From Flavobacteriaceae bacterium (GTDB taxonomy: Bacteria; Patescibacteriota; Minisyncoccia; Phycocordibacterales; UBA1006), in assembly GCA_047614005.1 (NCBI GenBank), contig JBLHIK010000001.1, positions 1-62,913 on the forward strand: a DNA stretch of 62,913 nucleotides, given 5' to 3'. Shown here piece after piece: positions 3,655 through 42,011 of the stretch. Numbering within the stretch: position 1 is the stretch's first letter; every line of letters begins with the position of its first letter. Below the pieces are notes generated by a model that did not search any database, was not told where the DNA came from, and saw only the letters and a program-made list of their open reading frames with translations. Position numbers and translations under genes: made by a program.

Positions 3655-4608
3655 CTATCTCATTTTTTTTGCTTTGAGTTTTTGTTTTTTAGAAAAAAAT
3701 TGTTTTATTTTCCCGATGATTCCAGTACACTCTGGACACCCTACTCTGTCACATCCTTCGCTACAACTATCACATGCAAGGAATTGTTTGTCACACATTG
3801 AATAAATACAGTTCACATACACGTCGTTTGGAGCGTGGCATTTTGAACATTGTGACAATATCTCGTGCTTTTCGCTATCTGTTTCAAAACCTATAGCAAC
3901 CCTGTTATCAAAAACATAGAGCTTTCCTTTAAAATCCTCATTAGGATATTTTTCCATATATGACACGATACCTCCATCGAGCTGATAGACATCAGAAAAC
4001 CCTTCATTGACGAGAAATCCACTCGCTTTTTCACATCGTATTCCACCAGTACATACTGTTACTACTGTCTTATCTCGTAAGTGTTCGAGACCAGATAAGA
4101 GTTCTGGCAAATCTTTAAATGAATCCATAGGCGGACACACTGATCCTTCAAAATTACCAATGATGTGTTCATAAGCATTTCTCATGTCAACAATAGTAAA
4201 TTCTCTATCGGAATGAATCCACTCATGAAGGGTCTCAGGTGAGAGTTTCTTTCCTGTTGTATGTTCTGGTGAAAAATCTGTATCCCCAAGACCGAGAGTT
4301 ACTATCTCGTCTCGAATTTTTATTGAGAGTTTTGGAAAAGCACTTCCAATGCCTCCGCTCCTCTTCCAGTGTATATCAGAGAATTTTTCTTGTGAATTCA
4401 TCCAGTCAATATATTTTTGTATATTCTCCCTAGCACCTTCGAAAGTTCCATTGATTCCCTCGTGGGCAACTATTGTACGCCCAGTAAGAACAAGCTCTCT
4501 GCACTTTTGTATCTGATCTTCTTTGAAGGCTTCAACATCTGGAATATCTGTATATTTATAAAATAAAACAATTTCATAATTTTTATTATCTTCTTTCGTC
4601 TGATTCAT
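3655..4608 (-). CDS. trhO: rhodanese-domain tRNA U34 hydroxylase-like protein (UPF0176/YceA family)
   Basis: LFYKYT N-terminal domain, rhodanese active-site loop CTGGIRCEKA, and a Cys-rich C-terminal tail. Confidence 0.75.
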   Translation of the reverse strand: MNQTKEDNKNYEIVLFYKYTDIPDVEAFKEDQIQKCRELVLTGRTIVAHEGINGTFEGARENIQKYIDWMNSQEKFSDIHWKRSGGIGSAFPKLSIKIRDEIVTLGLGDTDFSPEHTTGKKLSPETLHEWIHSDREFTIVDMRNAYEHIIGNFEGSVCPPMDSFKDLPELLSGLEHLRDKTVVTVCTGGIRCEKASGFLVNEGFSDVYQLDGGIVSYMEKYPNEDFKGKLYVFDNRVAIGFETDSEKHEILSQCSKCHAPNDVYVNCIYSMCDKQFLACDSCSEGCDRVGCPECTGIIGKIKQFFSKKQKLKAKKMR

Positions 4609-4731
4609 AAAAGATATGATATGTTAAAAAACAATACACTGCAAGGCATGTAATGTATTTACATTCGACACTCAATATAGTATAATAAAATTAAGAAATT
4701 GTTCTTAATAAAACCTTATAAAATTATAATT

Positions 4732-5220
4732 ATGGAAACCTCAGTTATTGAAACTCCAACAAAAGATTTTATTGCTGCGTATTGGATATGTAGCAATTTA
4801 AGAAAACAAGGGCAGATAAAATCATTTGAGAATTTTTTAAATAAGATGAAGCATCTCCCTGATAATATCTGGGATAAAATTCATCAATACAAAGAAAAGA
4901 AAGAAAATAGAAAAGAGGGAGAATGTTTCTACCCAATAACAAAGGGAGACAAATGGTCTATTGGTCTTAATCCTATTTTAAATTTTTTTAATGATATTAT
5001 TCAAGGAAATGTTACTGAAAGAGATGAGATTATGCAATCAATATCTATTGATTGCATTCTATACTTCCTTAAGGTAAATAATTTTTGCCTTAAGGAAAAC
5101 ATGAAAGTAATCACTAGGCACGTAGCAAGACACCTTAACTCATATGGGATTTATCTTTCTTTTTCTGAGGTTTTTATCCTTCTCGCTGAACTTGAAGATA
5201 AAAAATTAGAAGAGGTCTAA
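4732..5220 (+). CDS. hypothetical protein (AT-rich, only plus-strand gene in this stretch)
   Basis: ORF 4699..5220 in the track. The first ATG is at 4732 (METSVIETP). No recognisable motif. Confidence 0.5.
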   Translation: METSVIETPTKDFIAAYWICSNLRKQGQIKSFENFLNKMKHLPDNIWDKIHQYKEKKENRKEGECFYPITKGDKWSIGLNPILNFFNDIIQGNVTERDEIMQSISIDCILYFLKVNNFCLKENMKVITRHVARHLNSYGIYLSFSEVFILLAELEDKKLEEV

Positions 5221-5417
5221 TACCATAATTATTCTTTAAAAAAGCCAAGGTATTTTACTTTGGCTTTTTCTTATGCAATGTATTTTATCTGATATACTTA
5301 TAATATGAAAAAGATATCATTGGCTGTTGTCACAATATCACTTATCCTTATTGGAGTAGGTTTCTTCCTTGCATACAACGACAATGGCCCTACTACTCAA
5401 GATACGAATGCTTCTCT

Positions 5418-25775: not shown

Positions 25776-25865
25776 ATAGATAACTATAGCATATTACCTC
25801 ATAGTATATAATCCTTCATATTTCATTATTTCCCAATTTGCAAGTCACTTGCAAATTCAAAATAA

Positions 25866-25890
25866 CTGCAGGAGGTCCGACCTCCTGCAG
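25866..25890. repeat. GC-rich perfect palindrome CTGCAGGAGGT-CCG-ACCTCCTGCAG (dispersed family, copy 1)
   Basis: Read directly. The same element occurs at 38441, 39037, 39764 and 39811, with a degenerate copy at 42643. Confidence 0.85.
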
Positions 25891-26129
25891 TTTTCACGAT
25901 AAGGTTGTTTTGATTGAATGGTTTTAAATTTGGAAAAACGTTGCAATTATTTCTTGAAGATAGGGTTCAATTGATTGACATATACATGCAAACCTGCCAT
26001 ACTACATATCAAGAAGTACATTGAAAAACATTTAGTTGAAGTCGCCTTTTGATTGGTTCATCTCAGTTTCTCTATGGAAGTTGAGATGAGTCAATCACGA
26101 AGGTAGATTTTTAACTAATAATTATAATT

Positions 26130-26354
26130 ATGAAAAAAACATGGTTTTATTATGGATTTTCAGATCGAAGAAGAGGAATCTGGACAACAGGTACTTTCTT
26201 TGGAACTACAGAGGAACTGTTTAAAAACGGAGACTTTTTAAGAACTTTTGCACAGAGCTATTCCATATCTTTTTATTATGAATTAACACCTGAAGGTGAA
26301 AAAATTAAATTAGAATTCACTGGAGATCAGTTATATAAATTCAGAACAGCTTGA
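26130..26354 (+). CDS. hypothetical small protein (74 aa)
   Basis: ORF with ATG and a downstream hairpin plus T-run at about 26405..26445. No motif. Confidence 0.4.
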   Translation: MKKTWFYYGFSDRRRGIWTTGTFFGTTEELFKNGDFLRTFAQSYSISFYYELTPEGEKIKLEFTGDQLYKFRTA

Positions 26355-34727: not shown

Positions 34728-37700
34728 TCATGATTTTCTTTTAAACAAATGAAATACTCTCTTGAAAAAGTTTCTTATCCTGTGCCAGAGATTTTCCGAA
34801 GTAGCATCACTCACCGAAGCAGAGAGAAGAGCAGGCACATCTCCCTCTTTTATATCTTCTACTTTTTCTACATCTGCGATACTCACCTCATCTTCTTCAG
34901 TATTTTCTTCTTCCTTTTTCTCTTTTACTAACTCTTTTTCTATGAGTATTTCCTGTACGGATTCTTCTGTTGTTTCTTCTACCATTACTTCTTCTATCGC
35001 TTCATCTGTTTCTTCTTCCTTTTTTTCTTTTACTGCCTCTTCCTCTTCTTGTACTACTATTCTCTTTTGTCTAGAACTACTTCCTGACGAGACAGTGTGT
35101 TGTACCTCTATATTACTACTCTTCATACTCTCAGTATTTCCCGCAATATCTATAGAAAAATACGATACAGTCGAGGAGCTCTGAGCGAGGAATGGATATT
35201 CATAGATCTGCCACTCACCACTATCGAGCCGGTACCATGTTCGTAGTATCTCACTCTCGTCTTCTGTAATGAGAGTGATTTCTTTTTCCGATGAACCACT
35301 CTCAGAGAGGTGTGTCACAGGAGACACAACATCTACAGAAGTACTCACAGAAACTTCGCTGATGAGAGTATCTATCGTGCCGTCGTTTTCATCGTCTATA
35401 GAGAGCTCTATAGACGAGAGATCTTCTGTATCGAGAGTGAACGTCGTCACAGAAGTACTCGTCACTAGCTCTACGTCGTTATAGAGACGCGTCTCTATAT
35501 ACTCGCCATTATGTACCTTTTGTATATATAGATCATAGCTCCCTGTATCGTAGGCATCTATCTGTATATCGAGAGATCCAGAGACAGACTCGTCGATAAA
35601 CATATACATCACATCCTCTATCATCTCTACATGCACGCCTTCAATGCCCTCTTCGAGAGTGCCATCTTCGAGCAGTCCTACATGTCCTCCTGAGCTGTCA
35701 TATATATGAAGATTCACAGGACTATGAGTGCTCACGACTGTCCCTGATATATCACCGCACGCACCTACTCTCGAAGAGAACTCCGACTCGCTCGCAGTAC
35801 CACCTGAGAGTATATCGAGTATCCCTTTTCTCACATCTGTATCATTCATCATGAAAGCATGTGAGGTTTCGTTGACATAATATATCTCATCTACTTCCTG
35901 ATGAGAGGCACTCTCTATAGGCACTACATCATCTCCGTTGATATATAGTATCTTGTAGTCGAAAGAGTCTTCGTCTCCTATGAGAGCCTTGCTACTATTG
36001 TTGCCTATGATAAATTCTCCGAGAGTCGGAGACTGACAACCAGCAAAGGTATAGGTTTGCACCTCTCCAAAATCCATATTTTCTATTGAACTATGCAGTG
36101 GCTCTATAGTATCAAACATGAGAGAGTTTCTTCCTTGATCCTGTAAATACCCTCTCGTCTCGTCGTAGTCATATGAGCCATCGGCAAAGACTGTGGTCGT
36201 ATCTGTGACGTATTCCCCTCCTCTCTCTTCAAAGTATTTACCTGTCGGCAAGAGCTGATAGACTGATGGGAAGTTTTGGGATATTTCTTGTATGCGTTTT
36301 TCATTGAGTTTGAAAGGTCCAACTCTAAATCCCATACTATCTCCCCACATGAGAACTTTAAAAGCTTTGGGAGCTCCTATATGTGGTGTCCCCACGAAGA
36401 CGACCTTGTCTATACTCTCCTTACCATAATCTGCTGCATATGATTTTGCCACGAGACCTCCCATGGAGTGTGCTATGAGAGTGACTTGTTCTGCTTCTGT
36501 CTCGAGAAGTACTGCGTCTATCTTTGCCTTTAATAGCTCGCCTGTCATACGTGTATCAAAACGCCAGTCATAAGGAAAGGGAAAGAACGTCTCTCCTTCT
36601 ATATATCCTATACTTTCTAAATCTTCAATGAAATCTTGTGTGATATTTTTATTCACAACTTCTCGAAAAATATCCCCTTCTTTCACATCATTCACAGAAT
36701 TCTGTCCGTCATTAAAAAGAGATAATTCTTTAAGATAATTATCATCAGGGAGTAATACTCCCTTCAAAGCTCTCGGCCATTTCTCCTCTCCATTTTCTCC
36801 ATCTATGAGATAGCTCGCAGTAATTCCAGGGATAAATATCACAGGTGTGAGCTTTTTCTCTACGCCGTATTTATCAAAAGGTTGCATTCCTGCTTTTATC
36901 TCTGGCTTTTCTGTGAGCCAGTCAGAATAGTCGACATCTCCCTCCACTACTCCCCCTTCTCCATCTGGATTATTTGTATGTGTCGGACCAGTCTCGCTCC
37001 CCCAGTAATTCCCCCTTGCTACCACAGGATCATTCCCTTCCATGAAAACATCCCTTTCTCTACTATTCTCAAAAATACTATTTTCTACTGTCACTCTTCC
37101 ATTTCCTGTAGCATAGATGCCTCTATTATTTCCAGAAAAGACTGTATTTTCTATAAGAGTATCTGAGGTAAATCTTTCGTATCTTTGATATCTTCCAGAT
37201 CTAGTATAGATAGCTATGTTTGCATTTTGTATTCTATTGTTATACAGATGTGAATTCGGGTCAGTTCCAATATATATTCCGATATTGCTATCGTCATAAC
37301 TATCAAATGCAAAATCATTGAAACCCATTTTCATGTTACTATCTTTTCCTATACTTCCTATACTTGCACTAGTGTCAAAATGAAAAGCATTATTAATAAG
37401 AGTGAAATTCCCATAAACACCCAATCTAAAACCCTTCTTGGATATATGACGAGCTACGCTGTTTTGCATGGTGATATGAGCAGCTTCGCGAGTCGTCAAA
37501 AGAGTCCCAACATGCGTTGCCTCCAGCTCATCTATGAGAGTGTGGCTAGTATTATAAAGACCTTCTACACCTGTTTCAACATGAGAGAGAACAGGCCTGA
37601 CGAGATGGCCCCTCGATCTATAAAATAAAAACCCTCTTTCTCCATATGATATGTGTATATCTTTATACTGACCATATTGATTTGTAAAAAAAAGATAAAG

Positions 37701-38156
37701 ACCCGTGCTTGCGTGATAGATATTCAAGTGAGAGAGTGAAAGAGTGGTATCTTTTCCAATTCTGATTCCTCCCCAACAGTATCCATCACAATATTCTTGG
37801 TCGAGATTGCCACCTTGTGCATTTCTACTTGCAAAAAGTATCGGGAGGTCTTTTGTACCATTGGCAGTAAAGGTAGCTCCTCCACCAGTAATGATTCCAT
37901 AATACGGATATCCATCAAAATCTTCTGGAGGTGCATCTACGTAGACCTCCACACCTGGCTCTATGGTAAGACTAGTGTATTCGCCCCACATGTTGATATT
38001 TGTTTGCAGGATATACGGAGACCCCTCAAGAGTCCACGTCACCTCACTTTCAATATTTTCGGTAACAAAAGTCTCTGCAAATGCACTTTCTAAAGGAGAC
38101 AACAAAAAGAAAAAACCACATACAACAAGAAAGATAATGTATCGCTTTCTACTCAT
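34728..38156 (-). CDS. large secreted protein: signal peptide, right-handed beta-helix repeats, LCAT-like alpha/beta-hydrolase (lipase/acyltransferase) domain, Ig-like region, acidic low-complexity tail
   Basis: Signal MSRKRYIIFLVVCGFFFLLSPLESAFA. Repeats of the NosD/pectate-lyase type (NNRIQNANIAIY.., ENTVFSGNNRGIYA.., ENSIFENS). VIFIPGITASYL..PYDWRFD..IAHSMGGLVAK..GTPHIGAP matches the LCAT/PGAP1-like lipase pattern (YDWR, GxSxG). Confidence 0.75.
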   Translation of the reverse strand: MSRKRYIIFLVVCGFFFLLSPLESAFAETFVTENIESEVTWTLEGSPYILQTNINMWGEYTSLTIEPGVEVYVDAPPEDFDGYPYYGIITGGGATFTANGTKDLPILFASRNAQGGNLDQEYCDGYCWGGIRIGKDTTLSLSHLNIYHASTGLYLFFTNQYGQYKDIHISYGERGFLFYRSRGHLVRPVLSHVETGVEGLYNTSHTLIDELEATHVGTLLTTREAAHITMQNSVARHISKKGFRLGVYGNFTLINNAFHFDTSASIGSIGKDSNMKMGFNDFAFDSYDDSNIGIYIGTDPNSHLYNNRIQNANIAIYTRSGRYQRYERFTSDTLIENTVFSGNNRGIYATGNGRVTVENSIFENSRERDVFMEGNDPVVARGNYWGSETGPTHTNNPDGEGGVVEGDVDYSDWLTEKPEIKAGMQPFDKYGVEKKLTPVIFIPGITASYLIDGENGEEKWPRALKGVLLPDDNYLKELSLFNDGQNSVNDVKEGDIFREVVNKNITQDFIEDLESIGYIEGETFFPFPYDWRFDTRMTGELLKAKIDAVLLETEAEQVTLIAHSMGGLVAKSYAADYGKESIDKVVFVGTPHIGAPKAFKVLMWGDSMGFRVGPFKLNEKRIQEISQNFPSVYQLLPTGKYFEERGGEYVTDTTTVFADGSYDYDETRGYLQDQGRNSLMFDTIEPLHSSIENMDFGEVQTYTFAGCQSPTLGEFIIGNNSSKALIGDEDSFDYKILYINGDDVVPIESASHQEVDEIYYVNETSHAFMMNDTDVRKGILDILSGGTASESEFSSRVGACGDISGTVVSTHSPVNLHIYDSSGGHVGLLEDGTLEEGIEGVHVEMIEDVMYMFIDESVSGSLDIQIDAYDTGSYDLYIQKVHNGEYIETRLYNDVELVTSTSVTTFTLDTEDLSSIELSIDDENDGTIDTLISEVSVSTSVDVVSPVTHLSESGSSEKEITLITEDESEILRTWYRLDSGEWQIYEYPFLAQSSSTVSYFSIDIAGNTESMKSSNIEVQHTVSSGSSSRQKRIVVQEEEEAVKEKKEEETDEAIEEVMVEETTEESVQEILIEKELVKEKKEEENTEEDEVSIADVEKVEDIKEGDVPALLSASVSDATSENLWHRIRNFFKRVFHLFKRKS

Positions 38157-38217
38157 ATAAAAAGTATATCTATAATATATAAAAAAACAAGCAAACTAAA
38201 ATTAGAGATTCAAATAT

Positions 38218-38331
38218 TTAGAAAATATCTTTATAGCTTCCTCCCCATGCTTTATCGATAATAAAAAACAACAGGAGTGAAATACCTAAAATAAGGGTAA
38301 AGACGAGGATTGTCTTGAGGTAATGTTTCAT
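38218..38331 (-). CDS. possible 37-aa membrane peptide
   Basis: My own ORF call: MKHYLKTILVFTLILGISLLLFFIIDKAWGGSYKDIF. Too short for the track. Confidence 0.2.
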   Translation of the reverse strand: MKHYLKTILVFTLILGISLLLFFIIDKAWGGSYKDIF

Positions 38332-38440
38332 ACACTCATTATACCTTATATTGCTTTGTTTCGTAATATATTGATTTATATGTGAAAAAATGGATTCTTT
38401 AATCTTATGAAGGATCTGCCTTAATAAGAGGACTTATGTG

Positions 38441-38463
38441 TGCAGGAGGTCCGACCTCCTGCA
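38441..38463. repeat. GC-rich palindrome TGCAGGAGGT-CCG-ACCTCCTGCA (copy 2)
   Basis: Read directly. Lies inside the conserved 5' module of cassette 1. Confidence 0.85.
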
Positions 38464-38520
38464 TGTTATGGTGTTTTTATAGAAAATGTGATATGTTGAA
38501 TGAAACTTAAAACTTGTACT

Positions 38521-38889
38521 ATGAAAAATGAATCAAAATCTATTAGAGTTATTATTTATGGAGAAGCAGACAGCGAAGGTATACAAAAAGGTATTGAAGA
38601 ATACCTTCTTGGAAAAGATATCTCCCTTGTGAAAACACAATACATCCCAAATGTTTTATACTCTGAGACTACTCTCAAAACAATAACAAACCTGGTTAAA
38701 CATCCAAGGGAAACTATTTTTATTTTTGGGATAAATAAATATGATGATCTCACTCATGCTGTTGTAAAAAACATAAAGCATTTAATTGAAAATGAAAAAG
38801 CATTTCAATACATCAATGGTCTCTGGAAACAAGAAGATACCAACAAGATGATGGATGCCTTCTTGAAGAGTTCAGAAGTACCTGCGTAA
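38521..38889 (+). CDS. hypothetical small protein, cassette gene 1
   Basis: Track ORF 38500..38889. The start is placed at the ATG in gtactATGAAAAATgaa because the same context precedes cassette gene 2. Confidence 0.55.
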   Translation: MKNESKSIRVIIYGEADSEGIQKGIEEYLLGKDISLVKTQYIPNVLYSETTLKTITNLVKHPRETIFIFGINKYDDLTHAVVKNIKHLIENEKAFQYINGLWKQEDTNKMMDAFLKSSEVPA

Positions 38890-38912
38890 TAGTAAAAAAC
38901 TATACGCGAAAG

Positions 38913-38941
38913 AGCCTGCGATACGTTGCAGGCTTTTTTTT
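38913..38941 (+). terminator. rho-independent terminator of cassette 1
   Basis: AGCCTGC-gatacgt-tGCAGGCT followed by T8. The identical element follows cassette 2. Confidence 0.75.
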
Positions 38942-39036
38942 ATGTGTGAAAATGAGTAATTGAATCTTTTTCTTGTTAAGATCGTCTTTTTAAGGTTTTC
39001 TTATGAAGGATGTACCTTAATAAGAGAATCTATGCG

Positions 39037-39059
39037 TGCAAGAGGTCCGACCTCTTGCA
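39037..39059. repeat. GC-rich palindrome TGCAAGAGGT-CCG-ACCTCTTGCA (copy 3, compensatory G>A / C>T change keeps pairing)
   Basis: Read directly. Lies inside the conserved 5' module of cassette 2. Confidence 0.85.
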
Positions 39060-39121
39060 TGTTATGGTGTTTTTATAGAAGATGTGATAGATTGATATAA
39101 ATTTAACTTAAAAATAGTACT

Positions 39122-39529
39122 ATGAAAAATAAAAATCCATATCTACATCTACCCCGTATCATATATATGAACATATATGGTACAACAGACCGTAACAAGA
39201 TTGAAGCCCTTTGTAGTGAATACAACATAGAGAACTCTTCTGTCCAAGATAAGATAGAGTTTATATTCAATTATCACCCTGATATATCGACTGCGAAAGA
39301 ATCTCTTGGGAAACTTACTACAGAGATAAGCACGAACATGTTTATGCTTGGAAGTATAGAATCTACCAAGGAAAACAAAGAGTTTACAAAAAATTTTGTA
39401 CATTTACTTGAACAACGCGAAGCGTTTTTCAGATACAAAGTTCCTTTAAATCTTAAAGGGTTTAGCAATACTCTCTACAATTTCGGTGTGTACTTTTGTA
39501 AACATCAAAAGAATTTTAAACGTTCTTAA
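39122..39529 (+). CDS. hypothetical small protein, cassette gene 2 (weak similarity to gene 1)
   Basis: 135-aa ORF. Shares MKN.., I.IYG, and E..AF..Y patches with gene 1. Confidence 0.55.
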   Translation: MKNKNPYLHLPRIIYMNIYGTTDRNKIEALCSEYNIENSSVQDKIEFIFNYHPDISTAKESLGKLTTEISTNMFMLGSIESTKENKEFTKNFVHLLEQREAFFRYKVPLNLKGFSNTLYNFGVYFCKHQKNFKRS

Positions 39530-39562
39530 TATTATCTATTTACTATCTGTAAATAGCACAAG

Positions 39563-39590
39563 AGCCTGCGATACGTTGCAGGCTTTTTTT
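39563..39590 (+). terminator. rho-independent terminator of cassette 2
   Basis: Same AGCCTGCGATACGTTGCAGGCT plus T-run. Confidence 0.75.
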
Positions 39591-39763
39591 ATGTGTGAAA
39601 AAATGAGTTATTGAATCTTTTTATAGTACATATATTGACATATCATCGCATGAGTTTGATCTCTCACCTTTGATCTCGTGTCTTTTTTTGAAAACTTTAA
39701 AAATAAATTTCTATTGTCTTACTCTTTCAAGAGTTAATTAAGATTAGTTAAGTGTCTTGCGTG

Positions 39764-39833
39764 CAGGAGGTCGGACCTCCTGTTGTTGCTGTTGTTATGA
39801 AGGATTTGCGTGCAGGAGGTCGGACCTCCTGCA
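39764..39833. repeat. two further palindrome copies in inverted orientation (loop CGG): 39764..39782 and 39811..39833
   Basis: CAGGAGGTCGGACCTCCTG and TGCAGGAGGTCGGACCTCCTGCA, the second preceded by ATGAAGGATTTGCG as in the cassette modules. Confidence 0.85.
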
Positions 39834-39903
39834 GTTAGGCTTGTGCCTTTGCCCTCTTGTCTTTGACCTCGTGCCTTTAATTTCGTACCTTTTTATGGGA
39901 TAC

Positions 39904-39932
39904 AAAAAACCACCCTTGCGGGTGGTTTTTTT
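39904..39932 (-). terminator. bidirectional rho-independent terminator after the surface-protein gene
   Basis: AAAAAACCACCC-TTGC-GGGTGGTTTTTTT. Confidence 0.8.
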
Positions 39933-39983
39933 GTAACTTCACACGTATTTCTACGTATTCAGAACTATACTAGTTTATTAACA

Positions 39984-42011
39984 TTAGTTAACAATTTTGT
40001 ATGGAGTTCGTGAATCTTCTTCTAGTTGGAATGTGTAGTTGTTCATGTCAGCTACTGAACCATCTTTAGATGTAGCAGCTTCTACGCTATCTGATGTCCA
40101 TTGGATATCAGCTAGGTATGCACGAATTTGTTTAGATTCTCCTGCGTTAGTTCCAGAAATGTTAATTGTAACAGTTCCTGTTGAACCTTTCGCAATTTTG
40201 TAGAGTAGATCTGAGTTGTACTCTGTACCATATGCAGTATCGTCACCTGTTACTTCTGTAACATCAGTATCAGATTCTGTCATAGTAGCACTTACAGAAC
40301 CAAGAGCTGTACCAGTGTTATCTACACCATATAGTACGTTTACTTCTGTAGCAGAGTTTGCAGTTAGGATTTGCGCAACATCACGGTTGATGTATACAGC
40401 ATTATCTCCAAATGCAGTGATGTCTAGTGTCCATGAGAACTGAACGATATCGTTATCAGCTAGATCTACTGAAGTAACATCAGTAGTAGCTGATTTAACA
40501 TCTACCATAATTCCTTCAGTTCGTAGTTCATGAGCGTCTCCTAGGAATGATCCAGTTTCTGTGAAGTCACCGTCATCATTTCCATTAGCATCTGTATATT
40601 CTGTTAGGTTTATAGCAGTTACTTGAAGAGTATCACCTTCAGCGTATCGAGCACCATCATTTGTATCATCAAGATCAACAATAACATATACTGTTACTAT
40701 TTCATCTCCTGAGATATCAAAATCAATGTTGTCGAATGTTACTGTAGTACCTGTAACAGATTCTTCTGCAAACTTATTATCTACATCTTCTGATGTAGAT
40801 AGGTATGCTTTTTTAACAATGTTTGCAACTGTACCTGTACCTGTAGTAGCTAGAGTAGCTACCATCTCAGAGATGTTAACGTTTACGTCATCACCTTCTT
40901 CGATTTCAAATACTCCGATAACAACACCATTTGTAGCTGTTGAGTCATCTACTTCTATTACCACAGCTTCAGGATCTTCTGATGCAGCAGCAATGTCTAG
41001 AGAAGCTGTTTCTTCTGTATCAAAAGAAAATTCATCGTCTAGATCAAAACCATCTGTAAATGTGAATCCTGTTCCATCAACAAATCGAAATGATGAAGAT
41101 GTAGTACCTATTTCCCAGTCAGCACTTTCGTCATCTGAATCAATGTTGTTAAGTGTAGTGAATAGGAATCCTACTTCTGTAGTCTCATCAGATGCAAGAG
41201 CTGCATCTATTCCTGAGAAACGTAGTCGGTATTCTTGGTTTGTAGTTGTAAGAGTTCCTGTGTCATATTCTGACCAGTCAGATGAAGAGTCAGTATTCTC
41301 ACGAGCTACTTCTTCTCCATCAACAGTAACTGCGATTTCTGAGAAATAGTCCCAAGGTTTTGATGATTCAGAACCTGCAAGATCTTCTCCCATGTATAGA
41401 TCAAGTCGATTTAGCATAAGATCACCGTCGTCAGAAAGTTCAATATCAAGAACAAATAGTTCAACATTTTCTTGATCTTCGCTTACGTCAGTTTCTTTTG
41501 CAGATCCAACTGTGAATGAATCAACTGAACCTTCTGTTCCTTCAAAGTCTGAAGGAGTAGTAGATTCTCCAGGAGCGTCTGTACAGTTTGAAGCTAGAGT
41601 CATGCCGTTAGGACATAGATCTTCTGCAGGAGTATTTCCTGCTGGAGCTTCTGTACAGTTTGATGCTAGAGTCATGCCGTTTGGACATAGATCTCCTGCA
41701 ACAACTACTGTTGCTGATCCTGCTAGTACTGCACCAGTGTTTGGTCCAGCAATACCATCAGCCTCTAGGCCGTTAGCAGTTTGGAAAGCTTTAAGACCAG
41801 CAATTGTGTTTGGTCCGAAGTTTCCGTCAACGTCTAGTACTGGGTTTGCACCAGCCATGTTTAGAGCAGATTGTAGCTCTATTACTTGTGATCCGTTTGA
41901 ACCAGCACTAAGTGTAGACGTATATGTGTACGCTTGTGCTGACATAGTGAATCCAAGCATCATTACTGCTGCAAATGCAAGAGTAAGGATTGTATTCATA
42001 ACTTTAGTCAT
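39984..42011 (-). CDS. secreted cell-surface (S-layer-like) protein with N-terminal peptidoglycan-binding domain
   Basis: Signal MTKVMNTILTLAFAAVMMLGFTMSAQA. PG_binding_1-like SNGSQVIELQSALN..VDGNFGPNTIAGLKAFQTANGLEADGIAGPNT. Two DLCPNGMTLASNCT(E/D)AP repeats. A long acidic Thr/Asp/Ser-rich beta-type region. Confidence 0.7.
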   Translation of the reverse strand: MTKVMNTILTLAFAAVMMLGFTMSAQAYTYTSTLSAGSNGSQVIELQSALNMAGANPVLDVDGNFGPNTIAGLKAFQTANGLEADGIAGPNTGAVLAGSATVVVAGDLCPNGMTLASNCTEAPAGNTPAEDLCPNGMTLASNCTDAPGESTTPSDFEGTEGSVDSFTVGSAKETDVSEDQENVELFVLDIELSDDGDLMLNRLDLYMGEDLAGSESSKPWDYFSEIAVTVDGEEVARENTDSSSDWSEYDTGTLTTTNQEYRLRFSGIDAALASDETTEVGFLFTTLNNIDSDDESADWEIGTTSSSFRFVDGTGFTFTDGFDLDDEFSFDTEETASLDIAAASEDPEAVVIEVDDSTATNGVVIGVFEIEEGDDVNVNISEMVATLATTGTGTVANIVKKAYLSTSEDVDNKFAEESVTGTTVTFDNIDFDISGDEIVTVYVIVDLDDTNDGARYAEGDTLQVTAINLTEYTDANGNDDGDFTETGSFLGDAHELRTEGIMVDVKSATTDVTSVDLADNDIVQFSWTLDITAFGDNAVYINRDVAQILTANSATEVNVLYGVDNTGTALGSVSATMTESDTDVTEVTGDDTAYGTEYNSDLLYKIAKGSTGTVTINISGTNAGESKQIRAYLADIQWTSDSVEAATSKDGSVADMNNYTFQLEEDSRTPYKIVN
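41572..41694 (-). repeat. 72-nt-period direct repeat inside the surface-protein gene (encodes the two CPNGMTLASNCT modules)
   Basis: ggagcgtctgtacagtttgaagctagagtcatgccgttaggacatagatct versus ggagcttctgtacagtttgatgctagagtcatgccgtttggacatagatct. Confidence 0.8.

Follow-up and report, generated by a model that had tools for sequence, protein, structure and literature searches.

The 62,913-nt stretch of DNA analysed here, referred to as the window, is contig C1 of G000, the genome under study, which is a metagenome-type assembly of 598 kb in 30 contigs with 36% G+C, an estimated completeness of ~91% and a coding fraction of 90% by crude gene calling. Divergently from a lipase gene (34728-38156, minus strand), the window carries a tandem array of two full units, each with a small open reading frame (ORF) enclosed by non-coding flanks, followed by a third, truncated unit without an ORF. 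The flanks, which include a 23-nt GC palindrome, are far better conserved between the units than the genes that they enclose. We describe the array, the repeat family to which the palindrome belongs and the explanations that may account for this pattern.

The array begins with a decayed leftmost copy of a spacer block (ATGTGTGAAAA..TGAATCTTT, 38372-38402, plus strand); positions 38372-38414 are 63% identical to 38934-38976, and an 18-nt run (38375-38392) matches 39588-39605. Unit 1 continues on the plus strand with a small hairpin found by folding (CTTATGAAGG-ATCTG-CCTTAATAAG, 38404-38428; hairpin 1), the first copy of the palindrome (TGCAGGAGGTCCGACCTCCTGCA, 38441-38463), a promoter-like extended -10 element read from the sequence (TG-a-TATGTT, 38489-38497, 23 nt before the start codon), ORF1 (38521-38889, 122 aa) and an intrinsic terminator with the stem AGCCTGC..GCAGGCT and a T run (38910-38940). 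After a second copy of the spacer block (38941-38971, plus strand), unit 2 has the same order on the same strand: hairpin 1 with the loop ATGTA (39000-39024, from alignment and fold), the second palindrome copy with a symmetric G>A / C>T change (TGCAAGAGGTCCGACCTCTTGCA, 39037-39059), the putative extended -10 (TG-a-TAGATT, 39085-39093, 28 nt before the start codon), ORF2 (39122-39529, 135 aa) and a terminator identical to the first (39560-39590). A third spacer copy (39591-39622, plus strand), recovered by repeat search and BLAST, starts the ORF-less unit. It is followed by ~135 nt of unique sequence and then by a doublet of palindromes, whose two copies (39762-39784 and 39811-39833) have a flipped central base (CGG) and enclose the left half of hairpin 1 (TTATGAAGGAT, 39795-39805). 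The two palindromes of the doublet are able to pair with each other, and the region 39762-39833 folds at -54.1 kcal/mol (z = -7.3). A bidirectional terminator (AAAAAA-CCACCC-TTGC-GGGTGG-TTTTTTT, 39904-39932), likewise read from the letters and overlapped by Rfam matches below threshold only, closes both the array and a convergent surface-protein gene (39984-42011, minus strand).

The 5' blocks of the two units (38403-38510 and 38999-39106) are 86% identical without gaps and 90% identical over 91 nt by BLAST. The terminator block AAGAGCCTGCGATACGTTGCAGGCTTTTTTT is identical at 31 of 31 positions, and together with the next ~32 nt it forms a 94% match over 64 nt (38910-38971 against 39560-39622) that takes in the spacer block. 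The longest exact runs common to both units are 31 nt in the terminator and 25 nt in the 5' block, and the identity of 90-100% extends to the terminator loop and to positions without obvious constraint. Between these blocks, pairwise alignment of the units yields the level of unrelated AT-rich sequence; identity, 90-100% inside the blocks, drops sharply to the random level ~20 nt or less from the start codon and 20-30 nt past the stop. A preliminary description of this DNA, made from the letters alone, had noted two units with near-identical flanks and weakly similar ORFs, a third unit start leading into two palindromes and a position divergent to the lipase gene, and all of this is borne out. 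Its further remark that such flanks do not fit ordinary paralog decay also holds, as the ORFs, at 26% protein identity, fall far short of the conservation of the flanks.

ORF1 and ORF2 both have the codon usage of genes, with scores of 0.248 and 0.100 (long G000 genes, 0.252 +/- 0.068) and negative scores in all five other frames of each. Their proteins share 26% identity over 102 aa (BLASTP, E = 4e-4), and the Smith-Waterman score of 61-64 lies well above the 29-30 +/- 5.4 of shuffled sequences (z about 5.7-6), also when the shared first residues are left out. Among 3901 open frames of G000 each is the only match of the other. Given the codon scores and the scores above shuffles, ORF1 and ORF2 are real genes and true, very old paralogs, and the array therefore arose by duplication and not by import of unrelated cassettes.

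Outside the array both genes are orphans. A word-indexed search of 5.8 billion proteins returned only the two sequences themselves, a HMMER pass with ORF2 over 1.84 billion representatives gave no credible relative, and a profile built from both ORFs had one marginal match within a 560-aa frame, and none that was credible, in 54 genomes of the family. Pfam and NCBIfam searches of both ORFs gave sub-threshold noise only. The AlphaFold2 model of ORF1 (mean predicted local distance difference test score (pLDDT) 68.6) is a low-confidence, three-layer beta-alpha-beta-alpha-beta-alpha-alpha arrangement with only generic Rossmann- or flavodoxin-like matches (template modelling scores 0.30-0.44), and the ORF2 model is unusable (pLDDT 45.8). 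Hyperdivergence of the ORFs by point mutation is unlikely, and a diversity-generating retroelement was rejected after the ~91% complete genome gave no RVT_1 match.

The palindrome is not confined to the array. The window holds five 23-nt copies where none is expected by chance, the fifth at 25867-25889, and the long (21-nt) form GCAGGAGGTCSGACCTCCTGC occurs about a dozen times in G000. Its 9-nt core, GGTCSGACC, is present at 25 sites against ~0.75 expected by our own estimate from base composition. The 11-mer AGGTCSGACCT occurs 22 times, with no occurrence of the reversed core sequence that served as control here and in relatives, and all 22 copies fall outside credible genes. Some copies combine the same core with quite different arms, for example gtgtgagaGGTCGGACCtctcacac on contig C3. 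Copies sit in divergent, tandem and convergent gaps between genes, a spread that suits neither an operator alone nor a terminator alone; a pure terminator was rejected in view of the copies in divergent promoter regions. A DNA-uptake sequence was rejected by reasoning, as the copies are too sparse for one and the motif is a palindrome. The palindrome is one copy of a family that resembles repetitive extragenic palindromes (REPs), and not a regulatory or processing signal dedicated to the array; the preliminary description had suggested a shared signal of this kind as one possibility. The complete block has no other occurrence in G000, and the 5' block beyond the palindrome, like the terminator, is found by BLAST at the array locus only. 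A 24-mer from the 5' block likewise found nothing in the metagenome scan.

The same core recurs in related genomes with other arms. Whereas the long form is absent from the 40 relatives scanned, the 11-mer is enriched in five genomes of the same order but of other families (11 copies in G036, 10 in G060, 9 in G057, 6 in G027 and 5 in G038; controls 0). The arms differ by genome and are self-complementary and largely uniform within each, as in agtaCOREtact in G036, tttgagCOREctcaaa in G057 and tgcaggCOREcctgca in G000. For a covariation analysis we used 64 non-identical copies, picked by the core alone, from 8 genomes and three contigs of one metagenome. In arm pairs 8-12, the five that adjoin the core, 72-89% of copies are paired, with 4-6 pair types for each, and the covariation of 0.444 was reached by none of 500 shuffles (0.168) and compares with 0.13-0.19 for slid partners. 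Because the arms covary and differ between genomes, the family is a hairpin with an invariant 11-nt apex (AGGTC-S-GACCT) on a free, self-complementary stem. An exact 21-mer scan of a genome contig collection gave three matches, which by a rough estimate is about chance and thus uninformative, and in its single Patescibacteria match the core is no richer than the reversed control. In the metagenome scan, a 25-nt form of the palindrome was found on three contigs of one sample, one of which carries a gene 69% identical in DNA to G000.

The repeats are associated with a transposase family. G000 has a single Y1_Tnp gene of the IS200/RAYT type (REP-associated tyrosine transposase) at C2:20907-21491 on the minus strand, encoding 195 aa with the HUH motif NHFHLIL and the tyrosine motif SYVTLNH. 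It scores 30.9 bits against PF01797 (cut-off 23) and 27 bits against the NCBIfam model REP_Tyr_transpos (cut-off 80). Homologs of this RAYT-like protein occur in 18 of 61 relatives overall and in all six core-enriched genomes (hypergeometric chance 3e-4, without correction for kinship). Around the RAYT-like genes of G057, G036 and G060, copies of the core lie 30-121 nt upstream, 3-11 nt past the stop and in frame inside the gene, the in-frame peptides being NLRGPTSQ (twice in G057; L072, C32), NEGRTFI (G036; L066, C11) and KGRTSL (G060; L082, C12); G060 also has a variant core, AGGTCAGACCT. A RAYT-like gene on metagenome contig L094, 48% identical to the G000 protein, is bracketed by copies that contain the 25-29-nt CTGCAGGAGGTCSGACCTCCTGCAG palindrome of G000, on L094 with longer arms. 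A RAYT gene bracketed by repeats is the signature REP/RAYT arrangement (PMC3116915, PMC3733652).

Several traits match the REP/REPIN and RAYT (TnpA-REP) systems of E. coli and Pseudomonas ('REPtron'): hairpins of 21-29 nt, many extragenic copies, uniformity within a genome and difference between genomes, doublets, and a single-copy Y1/HUH transposase homolog that is bracketed by repeats in relatives (compare PMC3116915, PMC3733652). However, one end of a classical REP bears a GTAG or CGTC tag that is left unpaired (PMC3733652), whereas here no such tag stands at the foot of the stem and conservation lies in the apex AGGTCSGACCT, which is common to several families of an order. The G000 palindromes are furthermore perfect, with an orientation visible only in the central base, they are few (about 22), and another repeat flanks the G000 RAYT-like gene. 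This third repeat (R3), CAGAGCTAAGCTGTTTTTCTTTCACGTGAAACAC, includes the palindrome GTTTCACGTGAAAC and is present six times in G000. Two copies in direct orientation (C2 20364-20401 and 21507-21540) flank the operon made up of the RAYT-like and a YraN-like gene; the others lie at C2 23633, 24487 and 25246 and at C17 3783. As with Rickettsia palindromic elements and intragenic REPs, the palindrome is tolerated in frame inside genes of relatives, but only inside RAYT-like genes, and in G000 no copy within a gene was found. The family is thus REP-like and of an unusual type, with a conserved apex, no GTAG tag and a tie to RAYT-like genes. In the literature searched, we found no paper linking REP/RAYT to bacteria of the candidate phyla radiation, the group of ultra-small bacteria to which G000 belongs.

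A regulatory reading was also considered, in which a dimeric transcription factor would use the palindrome as its operator. The 5' block would then be a common regulatory region held by purifying selection, and the dispersed copies would form a regulon. If the extended -10 elements are right, the palindrome would be centred near -53, ~53 nt upstream of the putative transcription start in both units and outside the mRNA, and three core copies spaced by 20 nt in a divergent region on C3 are in line with such a role. The genome also has a second dispersed palindrome, TGCAAGTSACTTGCA, a 7-1-7 box of the Fur-family type that precedes a Fur-like gene in G000 and in two relatives. However, the first palindrome also occurs in gaps between convergent genes, which have no promoter, and relatives have it within the reading frame of RAYT-like genes. 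Furthermore, its arms covary, are uniform per genome and differ between genomes, which is not expected of independently evolving regulon sites. We therefore consider an operator quite improbable.

The second palindrome has 14 perfect copies in G000, one at 25839-25853 in the window and 13 at other sites, among them one ~30 nt before the Fur-like gene C5:511-867. Two relatives have one exact copy each, just upstream of a Fur-family regulator gene (L049 and L050, ~1510), and in G023 (L049) a ZIP-type transporter gene is the divergent neighbour of that regulator. For at least 8 of the 14 copies there is a first palindrome, intact or decayed, at a distance of 6-27 nt, which suggests that a mosaic repeat carried a Fur-type box along as it spread. 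Close by in the window, a ~190-nt leader (25947-26137) is 71-84% identical to C25 6483-6654 and C7 20141-20347 and has a promoter-like TTGACA-17-CATACT ahead of a long hairpin (TGATTGGTTCATCTCA...TGAGATGAGTCAATCA). Where compared (C1 and C25), it precedes small genes that are unrelated to each other, and it has no Rfam match; the leader may be an undescribed cis-regulatory RNA.

The 5' block of the array could itself be a transcribed leader RNA, with hairpin 1 and a mini-frame followed by the palindrome and a U-rich stretch as attenuator, processing site or stabiliser. Folding of both unit leaders is much stronger than that of shuffled sequences (z = -4.5 and -4.8), and the palindrome with its tail is listed as terminator-like by the terminator scan. 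In the alignment the stem of hairpin 1 is identical between units, the differences being two loop positions, and the palindrome differs by one symmetric pair, so that changes fall in a loop or are compensated. A mini-frame, MKD(L/V)P*, is kept as well: ATGAAGGATCTGCCTTAA reads MKDLP* at 38407-38424 in unit 1 and MKDVP* stands at 39003-39020 in unit 2. A third, partial copy of the frame at 39797 runs on into the palindrome, and a frame of five codons may be chance in AT-rich DNA. Against a leader RNA, no Rfam family reaches the gathering score within 38150-40000, where an E-value scan lists sub-threshold terminator-like matches only; the promoter scan finds nothing upstream of hairpin 1, and the T run begins ~10 nt past the stem. 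The palindrome furthermore occurs in many contexts that are unable to be leaders, and the comparison has two sequences only. This makes a leader RNA very unlikely. Each ORF ends in a canonical terminator by terminator scan and fold. Downstream of the palindrome, ATGTGATA is kept in both units and reads as an extended -10, and a cleaner extended -10, TG-a-TATAAT, stands 3' of a palindrome and upstream of a gene on contig C29.

The sharp drop from 90-100% to random identity at the ORF edges raises another explanation, namely that the terminator-promoter blocks, or the REP hairpins within them, act as portable homology or recombination arms through which cassettes are turned over. Genes would enter, leave or be exchanged through RecA-type single crossover of a circle, with block-gene-block as the product, through transformation with relatives' DNA, or through a Y1 transposase that works on single strands bounded by hairpins. 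Self-BLAST shows that at least 15 other loci in G000 have one or two genes between direct intergenic repeats of 59-265 nt and 91-100% identity, and the genes beside near-identical blocks on C3, C10 and C28 are unrelated (z about 0). The palindrome also brackets single genes, on C21, C25 and L093 as well as the RAYT-like genes of relatives. However, ORF1 and ORF2 are paralogs of each other alone, which points to duplication in place, and no integron-type integrase is nearby, the sole tyrosine-recombinase gene (Phage_integrase family) being on contig C2. Turnover of this kind is unlikely at the array. More doubtful still is a general, integrase-free cassette system in which blocks, often with REP-like hairpins, would loop small accessory genes in and out or swap them between strains; it would act by block recombination or through the RAYT-like single-strand enzyme and would leave many genes between near-identical direct repeats, and the array would be one such site.

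The bracketed loci lie on C2, C3, C4, C7, C8, C10, C15, C25, C26 and C28, and several of the blocks hold a terminator; on C3 and C4 the terminator varies from copy to copy, through compensated changes or through inversion of the loop (ctacg vs cgtag). The bracketed gene on L093, a contig of a metagenome relative, encodes 216 aa (4591-5241) and lies between two palindrome copies, downstream of a homolog of the peptidoglycan-binding surface protein of the window.

The array shares with integron arrays its small, mostly orphan genes between recurring hairpin elements and spacers better conserved than genes, but each gene here has its own promoter-like signal and intrinsic terminator and the genes are paralogous. 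An integron array was rejected, as there is no IntI-type recombinase with attI adjoining and the only Phage_integrase-family gene of G000 is the one on C2. The hairpins are not attC sites either, since the R''/L''-L'/R' architecture is missing and the perfect 23-nt palindromes are followed in both units by GTTATGG, not GTTRRRY.

An assembly artefact, in which alleles of one gene from two strains became linked in tandem at the shared 31-nt terminator, has some points in its favour in a 30-contig metagenome-type assembly: contigs C21 and C29 start inside a palindrome copy, and a public contig of run SRR28417443 assembled at k=31 (L031) ends exactly at the repeat 38910-38940. However, the 5' blocks differ by ~10%, with indels, the decayed spacer copy and the truncated third unit fit evolved tandem copies and not collapsed alleles, and the exact repeats of 31 and 25 nt are shorter than the largest k-mers in common use by assemblers. 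We regard an artefact as extremely unlikely.

We give a probability of roughly 0.6 to the reading that an orphan gene was duplicated here long ago, in units that carry a REP-like palindrome and whose flanks are kept alike by recombination and structural constraint. A lineage-specific small gene would have been duplicated in tandem locally, leaving two full units and a truncated third, in which each unit carries an intergenic block of intrinsic terminator, ~32-nt spacer, small hairpin, REP-like palindrome and promoter-like extended -10. By analogy with REP/RAYT systems, the repeats would be handled as hairpins of single-stranded DNA, which a RAYT-like enzyme would cut and copy. The coding parts would have drifted to 26% identity while the blocks recombined with each other, through gene conversion or unequal crossing-over, and thereby kept the flanks 90-100% alike. 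A protein identity of 26% implies saturation at neutral sites, so that flanks of 90-100% identity argue for repeated homogenisation of the blocks. Structural constraint on the two hairpins would add to this likeness, given that changes fall in loops or are compensated. Of the cassette exchange or recombination proposed in the preliminary description, block recombination is thus preferred for the identity of the flanks, and import of unrelated cassettes is set aside for ORFs that are true paralogs.

Tandem arrays under concerted evolution are expected to decay at their edges, which agrees with the state of the leftmost spacer, decayed, and of the third unit, truncated. The near-identical upstream region and first codons (MKN) followed by divergent coding bodies in adjacent genes also resemble concerted evolution in tandem families, for which the variable-lipoprotein genes of Mycoplasma, with their conserved 5' regions, are an example. 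Unlike those genes, the array has only two members, with no signal peptide or repeat-rich surface protein and no sign of an invertible or slippage switch.

Several points weigh against this duplication and homogenisation reading. Gene conversion is read from the pattern of identity alone, and purifying selection by itself could explain part of the 5' block. Elsewhere in G000 near-identical intergenic blocks adjoin unrelated genes, so blocks can spread independently of gene duplication. The putative promoters are weak matches to the consensus, and a consensus scan found no sigma-70 site and no full -35/-10 pair at the promoter-like signals of ORF1 and ORF2. For the REP-like assignment, the repeat on either side of the G000 RAYT-like gene is R3, no copy of the core is close to that gene, and neither the consensus AACTGCAGGAGGTCSGACCTCCTGCAGTT nor the arms in relatives contain a GTAG/CGTC tag.

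Between the lipase gene and the array lies a hydrophobic open frame of 37 aa (MKHYLKTILVFTLILGISLLLFFIIDKAWGGSYKDIF, 38219-38332, minus strand). The lipase has no ortholog in the family, and lipase synteny gave no comparison of this site. In G036 (L066/L097, C11 3-8 kb), the homolog of this beta-helix/LCAT-type lipase adjoins a palindrome, a RAYT-like gene and a triple-palindrome cluster. The occurrence of a lipase beside palindromes both there and in the window (34728-38463) may be an old shared neighbourhood or a coincidence.

The GC palindromes of G000 gain a concrete identity as members of a REP-like family whose hairpin apex is conserved across the order and for which there is a candidate partner enzyme. 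In this 0.6-Mb genome intergenic blocks can outdo the genes that they enclose in conservation, here and at at least 15 other loci. If the blocks do not drive turnover, the array is an ordinary duplicated orphan gene with homogenised flanks; if they do drive gene turnover, they would offer a simple route to accessory-gene variation where mobile elements are very few.

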